Source: an uncultured Hormoscilla sp.
GTDB lineage: Bacteria; Cyanobacteriota; Cyanobacteriia; Cyanobacteriales; Desertifilaceae
DNA length: 64,000 nucleotides
NCBI GenBank assembly: GCA_963921275.4
Contig: OZ001293.3
Location: 6,368,001 to 6,432,000, forward strand
Direction: 5' to 3'
Shown here: piece after piece, positions 38,143 to 44,405 of the stretch
Numbering within the stretch: position 1 is the first letter of the stretch
How the letters are laid out: every line of letters starts with the position of its first letter
The notes under the pieces: generated by a model
The model's database searches: none
Told to the model about the DNA's origin: nothing
The model's input: the letters and a program-made list of their open reading frames with translations, nothing else
Program-made: the position numbers and the translations under genes

Positions 38143-38774
38143 ATAATCATCTCTCTAAATTGGCATCTTGTGTGAGAAGCCAGGGCACCAGCGATCGTAA
38201 CGGACTTCTTTAGTTTATCTATATCATCGGTCGTCAGTTATCAGCACCATCCTTCGTCCAGAGGCAATCATGTAGAATCAACAAAAATACTTATTTGCCA
38301 AGGAGCAGCCCCTCCCTAGCTATCCGTCACCAGTTTCTCCATAATTATACCACAATCCCCACAGTTCGATCGTGCTTGGCTGCTTCAGTGAAATTATTGA
38401 TTTCCTCAGGTTTTGACTATATTTGTCTCAGAAATCGGGGATAAAAGACAATTGATAACAATTGGGATTGGCATGTATACTTTGAAAGGTTCAGACGAGT
38501 CAGTATTTAACAAGTTAAGCTATTGGCATGGTATATGTGCGATTCGTTTAGCGTAAACTAACTTGACACAAGTCAAGGAGGGGGACCGCTACCGGGATTT
38601 CGTAAGTCCCGAGAACTTACAGGTGATGGTGGTGAAAGCCCGCCCCTCCAGGTGCAGGAGTGACAGCACCCTCCCCACGGTAGCGATGGCATCAATCCGT
38701 GAAGCGGGAAGGAAAGGCGCTATGGCTGGGAGCCTAGACCGGTCATCGTCGAGCAAGTAACTATGATGAGCGTA

Positions 38775-39609
38775 GTGCGATTCGTTCTAGTCTAACGTGG
38801 GCAACTACGGAACGCTAGGCCAGGTCCAAACTGGTAACTCTGGTATTCATGGGGGTTAGATTCCCTCTCTCCAAGTGTGGGAGTAACACCGGTCCTTAGT
38901 GCTGCTGAGTCACATCACGGTGGTGCGGAGCAAGGACTTAAATGTAGGATAGCTAGCAGCCTAAGCTAGTGACGCCGCTAGGAAAGATGCTAATGGCTAG
39001 AACAAGCGAACCTGTGTACGCCTCGTTATCTAGAACCAGCGAAATAAGGCTTAAAGCGCTGGCCCAAAAGGGAAATGGTAGTTTGTGCTGGTTCTTGCAC
39101 TTGGCCAGTATCGCACTCTAAGAACTCCCGGGGTATAGCAGGGGCCTAAAAGCATCGTGAAATGATACTAGGGAACGAAGTAACTTCTCGTGTGCTGTCT
39201 AGATTGGACAAGTTAGATGTAAAGCGCAAGCCGCGAGGGGAGAGATAGCCCGAGAAGCTAATGCCTAGGGTAACGCCTATGGATATGATGGGGTGTTCCT
39301 CATCCAGCTGACGCGGGTTGGTTAAAGTAGGAAATCTTGGGTAAGAGTATCTCTAAGACGCCGGAGGCCTCTCGAAGGTTGGATGACTGGTAAAACAGAC
39401 TTGGAAATGGTAATACTAAAGGTTATCTGGCAGCGCCGCTTACCAACCAGGAAAGGAGTGAAATCGCATGAGATGAGGGACAAGTGGAGCAATCCGTAGT
39501 AATCCTAGTAGTGACAATGCCCTACTTGCCAGTAGCCGGATGCGGTGAAAGTCGCACGTCCGGTTCCGAATGGGAGAGTTAGGGGGTGACCCCTAGCTCG
39601 ACCCCGACT
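38775..39609 (+). mobile_element. ORF-less group II intron, family A copy 2, sense insertion in domain I of B
   Basis: Near-identical to 37275-38109. Confidence 0.92.
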
Positions 39610-39742
39610 AAGCGAAGGTTTGCAACGTCGTAAAGCCTATCCAGTGTAATAAGGCTGATACACTGGCCCAAAAAGGGAAAGGATACTGGTCATTGGCGGA
39701 TGTATACCCGACCAATAAGCACTGACAATAAACCCGGCGTAG

Positions 39743-40613: not shown

Positions 40614-42255
40614 AGAACCCGTCTAAGGTTACGACCAATCATCTGTAGGAACGAAGTAACCCGGTTGTAGCACTCTCCATCACCGGTCGATAGATGGAGT
40701 AGCCACCACAGGCGTAACATCTGCTCTCCGGAAGGCAGGACGCAACTGGGGGAGATTGAGTGGAGAAGTAAATGCCTGTCTGTAATGGATAGGATAAGCT
40801 GACGCCCTCACGGTCTCGTCAATTGTGAAGTTGTAAGTAGTAGTGAATATGTCACGGAACTTAGTCGAAAGACAAGAGTATGAATGGAAGACTGTCGCCT
40901 GGCGAAAGCTGGAAAGGATAGTTTTTAAGCTGCAAAAGCGAATTTACAGAGCGGCACTGGAAGGTAATAAGCAGAAGGTTCGTAAGCTCCAAGGATTACT
41001 AAATAGGTCATGGTCCGCGAAGATGATAGCGGTACGGCAGGTAACACAACAAAACCAGGGAAAGAAGACGGCTGGTGTGGATGGTGTGAAAGCACTGACC
41101 CCAAAAGAACGTATCGAACTGGTAGGTCAAATCAAAGTTACTCGAAAGGCGAAGGCAAAAGCCACACGAAGAGTGTGGATACCGAAGCCACGAAGGGAGG
41201 AGAAGCGGCCATTAGGAATACCAACGATGCACGACCGCGCACTTCAGGGATTGGTTAAAGAAGCGCTAGAGCCTGAATGGGAAGCGTATATGGAAGCCAA
41301 TTCCTACGGGTTTAGACCAGGTAGGGGATGTCATGATGCAGTTGCAGCGATATTCGCTAGCATCAGTCAAAAATCGAAATGGGTGTTAGATGCGGATATT
41401 GCGAAGTGTTTCGACGAAATTGACCATTCCGCGCTCCTAAAGAAATTGAATACTACGTCACCAATCCGTAAACAAATACGGGCATGGCTAAAAGCTGGGG
41501 TGATGGACCGGGGAAGGATGGAATCCACAGAAGCCGGAACTCCCCAAGGTGGGGTTATATCTCCATTACTAGCCAATATAGCTTTACATGGGCTGGAAGG
41601 GGTAGTAATGGGTCTCGCTCACACAAAAAGAGAGAAGGAGAAGTTAACCGTAGTAAGATATGCGGATGACTTTGTGGTAATACATAATGACCGGTCGATG
41701 ATTGAGGAAGCTCAAGGAGTGATTGAGGAGTGGTTGAAGGGAATAGGGCTGGAGCAAAAAGCCGAGAAAACGAAGATATCCCACACATTGGAAGGAGAGA
41801 GCCCTGGATTTGACTTCTTAGGGTTCAATATCCGACAATATAAAGTAGGGAAACACAGAAGCGGCAAACTCTGTAACGGAACCCCCCTAGGATTCAAGAC
41901 CCTAATCAAGCCTAGCGATAAATCCATAAGGAATCATAAAGAGCAGCTATCAGAGATAGTTCGCCGCCATAAAGGGGCACCGCAAACGGCCTTAATAGCA
42001 AGACTAAACCCGATGATAAGGGGATGGAGCAACTATTATAGGACGGTGGTAAGTAAAGAAACTTACAGCTCTATGGATAACTACTTATGGAAGTTGTTAT
42101 GGCGATGGGCAAAGAGAAGACATCCTAACAAAACGGGCAAATGGATTGCTAGTAAGTACTGGGGTATGACCGGGAAAGACCGGTGGAGGTTCGCTGGCAA
42201 GTCTAAAGAAGATGGAGGAATGAAGCTAAACCGATACTCTGAAACTGAAATAATC

Positions 42256-43996
42256 GGATGGGGTCGAGCTGGGAATCGCTTCCCGACCCTCCCTTGAGGA
42301 ACCGGACTTGCGATTTTCACCGCATCCGGCTACTGAGTACTAGGCCCTTTTCATAGGTGGATGGGGTCGAGCCGGGAATCGCTTCCCGACCCTCCCTTGA
42401 GGAACCGGACTTGCGATTTTCACCGCATCCGGCTACTGGGTACTAGGCCCTTTTCATAGGTAGACTTAATAGGAATTACTTCCGTTAGCCCTTGCCGCCT
42501 GTCTTTTCTTCCCTTTCCTGGTTTAGCGAGTGGTTGTTCTGATAACCGTTAGTATCACCATTTTCAAGTCAGTTTTACCAGTTATCCATACCTTATCCTC
42601 CACTTGCGTTTCGGATTAGTTCCGTGGCTTTTTAGGATTACTCATTCCAGCAGCTTCCTAGTATCACCGACCCACGTCAGCGCTGGCTACCCAGCATCAT
42701 CTACATTACTGTAGATGTTATCCCAGGAATTACCCCGGGCATTCGCTTCTTGGGCCATCCCTCCCCCCGTGGCTTGCGCTTAACATCTAACTTGTCCTGA
42801 TGGACAGCACACGAGAGGTTACTTCGTTCCCTAACAACATTTCGCGATACCTTTAGGTCCACACTATACCCCGGGAGCTATTTGAGTACTATATTAGCCA
42901 GAGTCTAAAACTAATACTAGCTACCATTTCCTTTTTAGGCCAGCGCATATAGCCTTATTTCGCTGGTTCCTTATAACGAGGCTTGCACATGTTTGCCTGC
43001 TCTAACCTTGGATATCTTTCCTAGCGGCGTCACCGGCTTAGGCTGCCAGTTATCCTACATTTGAGTCCTCGCTTAGCACCACGATGATGTCGCTTCGTAG
43101 CACCGAGGACCGGTGTCACCCCCGTACCTGGGGGGAGGGGAATTTAACCCCCATGCGGTCAGAGTTCCCGGCTAATGAAACCGGGCTAGCGTTCCGTGTT
43201 TGACCACGTTAGGCTAGAACGAATCGCACAGACTTAATAGGAATTACTTCCGTTAGCCCTTGCCGCCTGTCTTTTCTTCCCTTTCCTGGTTTAGCGAGTG
43301 GTTGTTCTGATAACCGTTAGTATCACCATTTTCAAGTCAGTTTTACCAGTTATCCATACCTTATCCTCCACTTGCGTTTCGGATTAGTTCCGTGGCTTTT
43401 TAGGATTACTCATTCCAGCAGCTTCCTAGTATCACCGACCCACGTCAGCGCTGGCTACCCAGCATCATCTACATTACTGTAGATGTTATCCCAGGAATTA
43501 CCCCGGGCATTCGCTTCTTGGGCCATCCCTCCCCCCGTGGCTTGCGCTTAACATCTAACTTGTCCTGATGGACAGCACACGAGAGGTTACTTCGTTCCCT
43601 AACAACATTTCGCGATACCTTTAGGTCCACACTATACCCCGGGAGCTATTTGAGTACTATATTAGCCAGAGTCTAAAACTAATACTAGCTACCATTTCCT
43701 TTTTAGGCCAGCGCATATAGCCTTATTTCGCTGGTTCCTTATAACGAGGCTTGCACATGTTTGCCTGCTCTAACCTTGGATATCTTTCCTAGCGGCGTCA
43801 CTGGCTTAGGCTGCCAGTTATCCTACATTTGAGTCCTCGCTTAGCACCACGATGATGTCGCTTCGTAGCACCGAGGACCGGTGTCACCCCCGTACCTGGG
43901 GGAGGGGAATTTAACCCCCATGCGGTCAGAGTTCCCGGCTAATGAAACCGGGCTAGCGTTCCGCGTTTGACCACGTTAGGCTAGAACGAATCGCAC
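42256..43996 (-). mobile_element. ORF-less group II intron, family C copy 2 (42256-42358 plus 43230-43996), antisense in the RT ORF and interrupted by C3
   Basis: The two segments sum to 870 nt of family C sequence, with a few private substitutions and a 1-nt deletion. Confidence 0.92.
42359..43229 (-). mobile_element. ORF-less group II intron, family C copy 3 (871 nt), inserted in C2 in the same orientation
   Basis: Complete copy at the site TAAGTCT|ACCTATG of family C. Confidence 0.92.
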
Positions 43997-44405
43997 AGAC
44001 ACGTAAAGGTTAAGGGGACAGCTAGCCCGTTTGACGGTAATCTGGTTTATTGGAGCAAAAGACTGAGAAAAAGCCCGGATGTGAGCGCTAGAGTTATCAG
44101 ACTGCTAAAAGAGCAGGATGGTAAGTGTGTGCACTGCGGACTGAAATTCAAAGATGGCGACAAATGGGAGGTTGACCATATTCTACCAGTTTCTAAAGGA
44201 GGTAAAGACTGGTATACCAACCTACAGTTGCTGCATGATTATTGCCATGATGTAAAGTCTGCCAGAGATGGTGACAAAGGCCGTATCCATGACAAGGATG
44301 GCGAAACTGAGGAGCCGGATGAGGTGAAAGTCTCACGTCCGGTTCTGAAGACGAGTCGGCGGGGTGACCCGTTGGCTTAGTTTAATCCATTACACCAAAC
44401 AATCC

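Follow-up and report, generated by a model that had tools for sequence, protein, structure and literature searches.

Spliceosomal introns and non-long-terminal-repeat retroelements are presumed to descend from group II introns, whose route to high numbers is debated. In the cyanobacterium Thermosynechococcus elongatus, introns without an open reading frame (ORF), the TeI3 or F3 introns, lie inside TeI4 (F1) introns, which encode a reverse transcriptase (RT); they occupy one conserved site and have been interpreted as independent insertions of recent date, and a preference for inserting into other mobile elements has been noted (PMC2882425). In the archaeon Methanosarcina acetivorans, nests of up to five introns were built as introns homed repeatedly and site-specifically into other group II introns (PMC4424553). 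A 5.4-kb, two-level sense twintron in a conserved gene of Trichodesmium erythraeum is spliced sequentially in vivo and restores the host mRNA (PMC4649490), and the plant mitochondrial intron cox1i1149g2 is hypermobile and has invaded itself, giving 'zombie' twintrons (PMC7049729). In this study, a nest of five group II introns was analyzed in a stretch of 64,000 nucleotides (nt), called the window, which corresponds to chromosome positions 6368001-6432000 of an uncultured Hormoscilla sp. (assembly GCA_963921275.4, contig OZ001293.3; genome of 7.03 Mb in seven contigs). Coordinates of features are given in window numbering unless marked as chromosome.

The nest occupies positions 38537-44386. 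Intron B (+ strand) contains A2 in the sense orientation and C1 and C2 in the antisense orientation, and C2 in turn contains C3, which gives a depth of three levels (B > C2 > C3). With good confidence, the nest is regarded as real and as most likely built by separate retrohoming events, each at a host site fitting the target motif of the invader. B would have inserted first, upstream of an OmpA-family gene; A2, C2 and C1 would have followed in any order, and C3 would have entered C2 last. The elements are listed below with their matches to RF00029, the Rfam model of domains V-VI (gathering score 40 bits).

38537..38774, + strand: intron B nt 1-238, with the GTGCG 5' end and the start of domain I; 100% identical to eight other B copies
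38775..39609, + strand, sense: A2, an ORF-less group II intron of 835 nt, after B nt 238; RF00029 match at the 3' end, 39531-39608 (+), 47.0 bits; one of 72 full copies
39610..39742, + strand: intron B nt 239-371, domain I, with an exon-binding site 1 (EBS1) candidate, TATAC, at B nt 332-336
39743..40613, - strand, antisense: C1, ORF-less, 871 nt, in B domain I after B nt 371; RF00029 match at the 3' end, 39745-39821 (-), 44.4 bits
40614..42255, + strand: intron B nt 372-2013, from the end of domain I to domain IV, with the 5' 471 RT codons from 40843; 100% identical to other B copies
40843..42297, + strand: present-day shortened RT-X frame of 484 amino acids (aa), extending 42 nt into C2
42256..42358, - strand: 3' part of C2, C nt 768-870, domains V-VI; RF00029 match at the 3' end, 42258-42334 (-), 44.5 bits
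42359..43229, - strand: C3, ORF-less, 871 nt, in the orientation of C2, after C nt 767/768; RF00029 match at the 3' end, 42361-42437 (-), 44.4 bits
43230..43996, - strand: 5' part of C2, C nt 1-767; the whole of C2 lies antisense in the B RT gene after B nt 2013
43997..44386, + strand: intron B nt 2014-2403, the D/En (HNH) part of the gene (Pfam HNH) and domains V-VI; RF00029 match at the 3' end, 44310-44386 (+), 57.6 bits

Between 37275 and 44386, six RF00029 matches reach at least the gathering score, three on each strand; the one outside the nest, at 38031-38108 (+), belongs to A1 (37275..38109, + strand), a copy of A located 427 nt upstream of B. All five nest elements and A1 begin with GTGCG, which fits the group II 5' end GUGYG, and the distance from this motif to the RF00029 match is ∼0.85 kb for each element and ∼5.85 kb for B. 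The hairpins of domains V and VI were recovered by folding (z of -3.95 to -5.5). A1 and A2 are identical at 833 of 835 positions and C1 and C3 at 870 of 871, C2 measures 870 nt after excision of C3, and chance is excluded because the nest copies are 99-100% identical to the 72 A and 143 C copies of the genome. C3 lies 28 nt upstream of domain V of C2, and its boundaries are fixed, with no sliding, since the ends of the insert and the flanks have no letters in common. Excision of 38775-39609, 39743-40613 and 42256-43996 leaves a B of 2403 nt in which a single frame of 600 codons is open; this gives 598 aa from a GTG at 40843 or 596 aa from the following ATG. The 5' piece of this frame matches Pfam RVT_N (1.5e-32), RVT_1 (6.5e-42) and GIIM (8e-25), and the 3' piece matches HNH (8.8e-14). 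The nest is a twintron in that removal of the inserts restores the outer introns exactly (B, 2403 nt; C2, 870 nt) and insert-free copies exist elsewhere. The initial annotation had described a five-intron nest of three levels with these boundaries and orientations, together with the precise restoration of a ∼2.4-kb B carrying a 596-aa RT-X-HNH protein; both descriptions are borne out, the former by the RF00029 3' ends, the GTGCG starts and the copy identities and the latter by the single frame with its four Pfam domains.

Once the inserts are removed, the RT, maturase (X) and HNH endonuclease regions share one frame within domain IV, and the antisense C2 interrupts the gene between the X and D/En domains. 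The remaining 484-aa frame retains the whole of RVT_N, RVT_1 and GIIM, and maturase or endonuclease-independent activity may therefore survive. A2, being in the sense orientation, could still leave the B RNA by splicing, and excision of C3 from C2 would be possible on the minus strand. In contrast, the antisense C1, C2 and C3 could never be removed from the B RNA, so that sequential inner-then-outer splicing would be impossible in principle; the consequence would be an RT without its D/En part and a domain I that carries an 871-nt insert. Because C1 in domain I and C2 with C3 in the RT gene are antisense and unspliceable, the window copy of B is predicted to be most likely no longer functional, either as a ribozyme or as an autonomous element. 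The end of B is separated by 76 nt from the first in-frame ATG of the OmpA-family gene, and an in-frame stop lies eight codons upstream of the B site, which places B in a leader or promoter region, outside coding sequence. No coding sequence relies on B splicing. The gene itself is the following.

44463..45212, + strand: OmpA-family gene downstream of B (Pfam OmpA)

The stop codon of the B RT gene lies 6 nt before the end of the intron. The same arrangement is seen throughout the B superfamily, in which the RT frames (window 44378-44386 and 16 other chromosomal RT introns) traverse domains V-VI and end at a TAG 6 nt before the 3' splice site; in 16 of 17 intact RT frames, the stop is followed by TAGTTTAAT or TAGTTTAAC. 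At their 3' ends, the mobile units read CU in A and CC in C (window 39606-39609 and 39743-39746), extending 1-2 nt past the AY end of the Rfam model, and the presumed branch A is accordingly the ninth base from the 3' end.

Copies of A and C were counted at an identity of at least 94%, by megablast followed by stepwise excision of inserts, and genome-wide de-nesting covered these two families. Megablast found 72 full A and 138 full C copies on the chromosome; excision added five outer C copies, each with a C at nt 768, for a total of 143. B is present as nine full copies and one fragment with identities of 99.7-100%, and a genome-wide megablast search for an uninterrupted B, as suggested in the initial annotation, found none among the nine full copies. 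Seven of the nine carry A after B nt 238 and eight carry an antisense C after B nt 2013, in two cases as a C-in-C pair; the layouts are A with C in six copies, C alone in two and A without C in one. C1 is confined to the window copy and is absent from all other B copies. C within C at nt 768 occurs at five loci, and a sixth C occupies the equivalent site of a C-like (96%) fragment. None of the ORFs lying wholly within A or C copies exceeds 56 aa, the longest being 50-56 aa. Together with fixed-site recurrence that includes diverged hosts, this agrees with the earlier proposal of two non-autonomous families inserting in both orientations into an RT-encoding intron.

The intron load of the genome is exceptional. 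The domain V-VI profile identified 501 group II 3' ends on the chromosome and the 5'-end profile 335 ends; the gap may reflect many 5'-truncated copies, as incomplete reverse transcription predicts, or a less sensitive 5' profile. Together, A and C copies and the remaining DNA homologous to introns account for 7.24% of the chromosome. Among 1,790 representative bacterial genomes surveyed, the maximum was 101 introns, in Arthrospira platensis (PMC8919778), and the load here is approximately five times this published maximum (501 3' ends versus 101). All four same-genus genomes contain uninterrupted B-like introns of ∼80% identity and C-like introns of 69-93% identity; C-like introns gave no match in the ten genomes searched from other genera. 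In this genome, so exceptionally rich in introns, the pattern recurs, and the nest is its most complex example.

The locus resembles that of T. elongatus in that the host is a cyanobacterium, insertion recurs at one conserved site of an RT intron and favors other mobile elements, and the inner copies are nearly identical while the outer copies differ. The ORF-less introns of T. elongatus are mobilized by the RTs of other introns, whereas trans mobilization here is a prediction. The inner intron of T. elongatus is in the sense orientation between the first two ATGs and is spliceable, so that the RT is expressible; here, C is antisense and unspliceable and ends the RT after the X domain. Furthermore, the ORF-less and ORF-bearing introns of T. 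elongatus are close relatives, in contrast to the 49-55% identity between A or C and the RT introns in domains I-III, and its 28 introns and two nest levels compare with ∼500 3' ends and three levels here. Repeated homing into introns without effect on a coding exon is shared with the archaeon M. acetivorans. However, orientation is unmentioned in the review, in which the word 'antisense' occurs 0 times (PMC4424553), whereas an antisense orientation relative to the outer intron is seen here for two of the three elements inserted directly in B and for C3 at the third level. The twintron of T. erythraeum is of similar size (5.4 versus 5.85 kb) and also comes from a cyanobacterium, with many ORF-less introns in its genome; unlike it, the present nest is not in coding sequence, and of its four inner copies three are unspliceable from the outer RNA. 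C3 in C2 resembles cox1i1149g2 as an intron in domain IV of its own copy, and there the inner copies stay during outer splicing. That system belongs to an organelle, has few copies and includes a degenerate inner intron, whereas the inner and outer copies here are 99-100% identical members of a 143-copy family. In a non-exhaustive full-text search of the literature, none of the 15 titles listed, of 112 matching papers, dealt with nested group II introns in a natural antisense arrangement, and the word 'antisense' is also absent from PMC2882425 and PMC7049729. Nested ORF-less introns in RT introns are known already; this case differs in the recurrent unspliceable antisense hit in the RT gene across several lineages of RT introns, in how far the ORF-less ribozymes are from the RT-bearing ones and in the size of the burst.

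The target consensus of A, from 62 distinct sites, consists of AACTAGA at -15 to -9, AGTGCA at -6 to -1 and A at +1, and that of C, from 120 distinct sites, of AACCTTA, GAGTCT and A at +1. AACTAGA and AACCTTA are like intron-binding site 2 (IBS2), and AGTGCA and GAGTCT represent IBS1. The EBS1 loops are complementary to the IBS1 consensus at 6/6 positions (TGCACT at A nt 322-327, in A2 at 39096-39101; AGACTC at C nt 324-329, in C1 at 40285-40290), and a candidate EBS2 covaries with IBS2 between identical flanks (TCTAG/CTAGA in A, TAAGG/CCTTA in C). A weight matrix trained exclusively on sites outside introns was used to scan both strands of the elements, with the following best sites.

A into B: nt 238, sense; 10.4 bits, background 1e-4; occupied by A2 and in six other B copies
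C into B: nt 2013, antisense, best on either strand; 10.0 bits, background 1e-4; occupied by C2 and in seven other B copies
C into C: nt 768, sense; 12.9 bits, background 1e-5; occupied by C3 and at four other loci
A into A: nt 321, antisense; 11.8 bits, background 3e-5; occupied in one copy, chromosome 361408

The last of these belongs to a complex A nest at chromosome 361089-363236, in which one full A lies antisense within another at nt 321/322, the best A-in-A site of the motif. Head-to-tail tandems of C are also present, with three copies at chromosome 5447656-5450268 and two at 824934-826675, the last base of one copy abutting the first base of the next; they could have arisen by insertion exactly at the intron boundary or by recombination.

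Several separate hits at each hot spot are certain, because the insert haplotypes are shared with copies elsewhere and diverged hosts are struck at the same positions. The A inserts of the B copies fall into three subfamily haplotypes (25A/468A; 803G; consensus), as do the C inserts at B nt 2013 (consensus; 843G/844A; 61A), and these variants are held in common with 7-29 copies elsewhere. Near-identical A is found at the nt-238 position in four B-like hosts that are 76-88% identical to B, and near-identical C at the nt-2013 position in five B-like hosts that are 67-81.5% identical to B, each set including one duplicated pair. An alignment of the nine B hosts themselves has 14 variable columns, and in all of these except one the change is found in just one copy. 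Relative to the C consensus, C2 has five private differences, C1 has one and C3, identical to the consensus, has none. The five changes of C2 and their absence from C3 fit C2 being the older insert, and reverse-transcriptase errors could give an equal pattern.

The top-level A and C insertions lie within intron DNA in 45 of 210 cases, although intron DNA makes up 4.68% of the de-nested chromosome (binomial p of 1e-17); for distinct sites, the count is 28 of 186 (p of 5.5e-8). The score classes that bear the hot spots are filled ∼10-fold more often in intron DNA: A sites of 10-12 bits are filled at 12/83 (14.5%) in introns versus 17/1327 (1.28%) outside (p of 1.8e-8), and C sites of 8-10 bits at 17/235 (7.2%) versus 19/3889 (0.49%; p of 1.3e-12). 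The classes without hot spots show no significant intron preference, neither for A sites of 12 bits or more (12.5% versus 5.9%) nor for C sites of 10-12 bits (4.3% versus 1.95%) or of 12 bits or more (14.3% versus 17.6%). Local hopping near helper genes was considered and rejected, as the A and C copies outside introns lie within 500 nt of intron DNA in 6.7% of cases versus 5.1% at random, and within 5 kb in 32.1% versus 33.7%. A general safe-haven effect of intron DNA is unsupported, the enrichment being limited to the hot-spot score classes. This limitation and the lack of clustering near introns point to specific hot spots in the RT introns.

Pieces of ORFs matching the B RT occur at ∼77 loci, 17 of which have one intact full-length frame. 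The intact B-type RT is that of one B copy (chromosome 2406679-2409916; RT 2408108-2409907), which has A but no C; one of the 16 further intact RT genes belongs to a different RT lineage. In domains I-III, A and C share 73.5% identity with one another but only 49-55% with each of the genome's RT-bearing introns, and the RT introns of the B superfamily are mutually 78-88% identical. An attempt to identify the helper by similarity was abandoned, since A and C are about equally distant, within this 49-55%, from all RT introns alike. In local alignments of domain IV of A and C with the domain IVa region of B, scores were within the shuffle range apart from one weak match of C to the first codons of the B RT gene (24 nt, 18/24, score 23 versus 18.1 +/- 2.3 and a maximum of 30 for shuffles). 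RT proteins of the B superfamily are nevertheless predicted to promote the splicing and mobility of A and C in trans, because theirs is the only abundant RT family in the genome. The initial annotation had pictured a hyperparasite system that uses and disables its probable helper. The ∼10-fold hot-spot fill agrees with the hyperparasite part of this picture, whereas the role of B as the helper lacks a sequence link in both domains I-III (49-55%) and domain IV; 'disables' is too strong a word, given the domains kept by the 484-aa frame and the 17 RT genes that are intact.

Several points weigh against a history of separate retrohoming at motif sites. The C1 site scores 1.6 bits with the fixed-spacing motif and fits only if the IBS2-IBS1 spacer grows by 2 nt; a perfect AACCTTA is present but shifted 2 nt away from the junction, IBS1 pairs at 5/6 positions, and C1 is read as an off-consensus insertion event. 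EBS1 pairing is imperfect at both hot spots (5/6 for C at B nt 2013; four Watson-Crick pairs and one wobble of six for A at B nt 238), yet these are filled in seven or eight of nine B copies compared with 0.5-1.3% of equal-scoring sites outside introns. Furthermore, six of nine B copies have the A and C layout in common, so that some were possibly copied as composites; no RNA run is on record among the 24 public runs listed; and none of the Logan contigs listed bridges the B|C1 junctions with at least 31 nt on each side, contigs breaking at repeat borders. Since imperfectly paired hot spots are far fuller than non-intron sites of equal score, the motif alone is insufficient to explain occupancy, and a factor beyond the modelled pairing raises hot-spot use. 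Such a factor would be expected if A and C had evolved to home into helper-type introns, with the hot spots as true homing sites recognized beyond EBS-IBS pairing, for example through protein contacts or a single-stranded helper intermediate. This explanation is tentatively entertained but is considered the less probable one. In its favor are the occupancies of 7/9 and 8/9 against an overall fill of 2-3% for all sites scoring 10-12 bits, the matched-score excess in introns, the hits at equivalent sites in diverged RT-intron lineages, the antisense orientation of 19 of 22 C insertions in RT-type introns and the like behavior of the F3 introns of T. elongatus (PMC2882425). However, EBS1 pairing is imperfect at both hot spots and perfect with the genome-wide consensus, no significant intron preference is found in the score classes without hot spots, 165 of 210 insertions lie outside introns and do not cluster near them, and no sequence link was found between A or C and the RT introns that would point to a helper. 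A bolder version, in which A and C are hyperparasites that strike the helper during its replication, C targeting the nascent single-stranded B cDNA (antisense strand), and in which the cut helper persists as an endonuclease-less RT/maturase still serving its parasites, would explain the 19 antisense cases; it is regarded as decidedly improbable.

Alternatively, an ancestral B that already contained A and the antisense C may have been mobilized in trans as one RNA, with only C1 and C3 added locally. The A and C layout in 6/9 copies, with C alone in two, and a star of hosts with mostly private changes are consistent with such copying. Inserts in domain IV of group II introns need not impair the ribozyme, and the antisense C lies in this domain. 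Composite mobility was also named as one possible route by Mohr et al. (PMC2882425). Against it stand the three or more subfamily haplotypes found among both the A and the C inserts and held in common with copies elsewhere, the near-identical A and C at equivalent sites of hosts 67-88% identical to B and the one B copy with A and without C; composite copying is therefore held to be unlikely as the general origin of the nest. A mis-join of near-identical 0.85-kb repeats during assembly is barely credible, even though 215 near-identical A and C copies are present and the B|C1 junction is bridged by no listed public contig. The junctions obey the target motif of the invader, excision restores the open frame to the base, and C2 has five private changes; the C-in-C and A/C-in-B layouts recur at other loci, one C-in-C pair also at B nt 2013. 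In addition, the assembly of the chromosome into a single contig of 6.88 Mb, despite hundreds of repeats of this kind, implies long reads. Of the 24 public runs listed, 20, from 17 studies, contain part of the stretch. Contig pieces covering 37000-37299, 38084-38563 and 44358-44700 bear out the outer borders of A1 and B with unique DNA. A run of another study yields contigs with A inside a B-like intron, without C1. A contig joint that skips C1 (39742 to 40614) was also seen, as expected from the eight other B copies without C1.

The runs of the 17 studies, under 17 organism labels, contain 23-87% of the sampled words of window 38300-44600, which points to near-identical introns of the A, B and C families being widespread in public data.

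With separate retrohoming events as the preferred explanation, the mechanism is explained in outline, and the heavy use of two hot spots is the remaining puzzle. The locus unites three processes that shape intron bursts, namely the rise of non-autonomous over autonomous copies, the use of introns as additional target space and the attrition of RT genes by unspliceable antisense hits. The excess occupancy of the hot spots, if true, would amount to parasite-on-parasite targeting among retroelements in a bacterium.

Two further features were noted in the window. An additional C copy at 55952-56822 (+), with its RF00029 match at 56744-56820 (+), lies antisense in the 5' part of a DUF4347/LRR/cadherin-repeat gene (52768-55851, -), which is adhesin-like by Pfam; this family has ∼20 copies that are 82-95% identical, and C occupies one common site in 6/20 of them. 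A cyanobacterial mark of the window is the full-length match (169.5 bits) of positions 4492-4678 (+) to IsrR, the antisense RNA of isiA.

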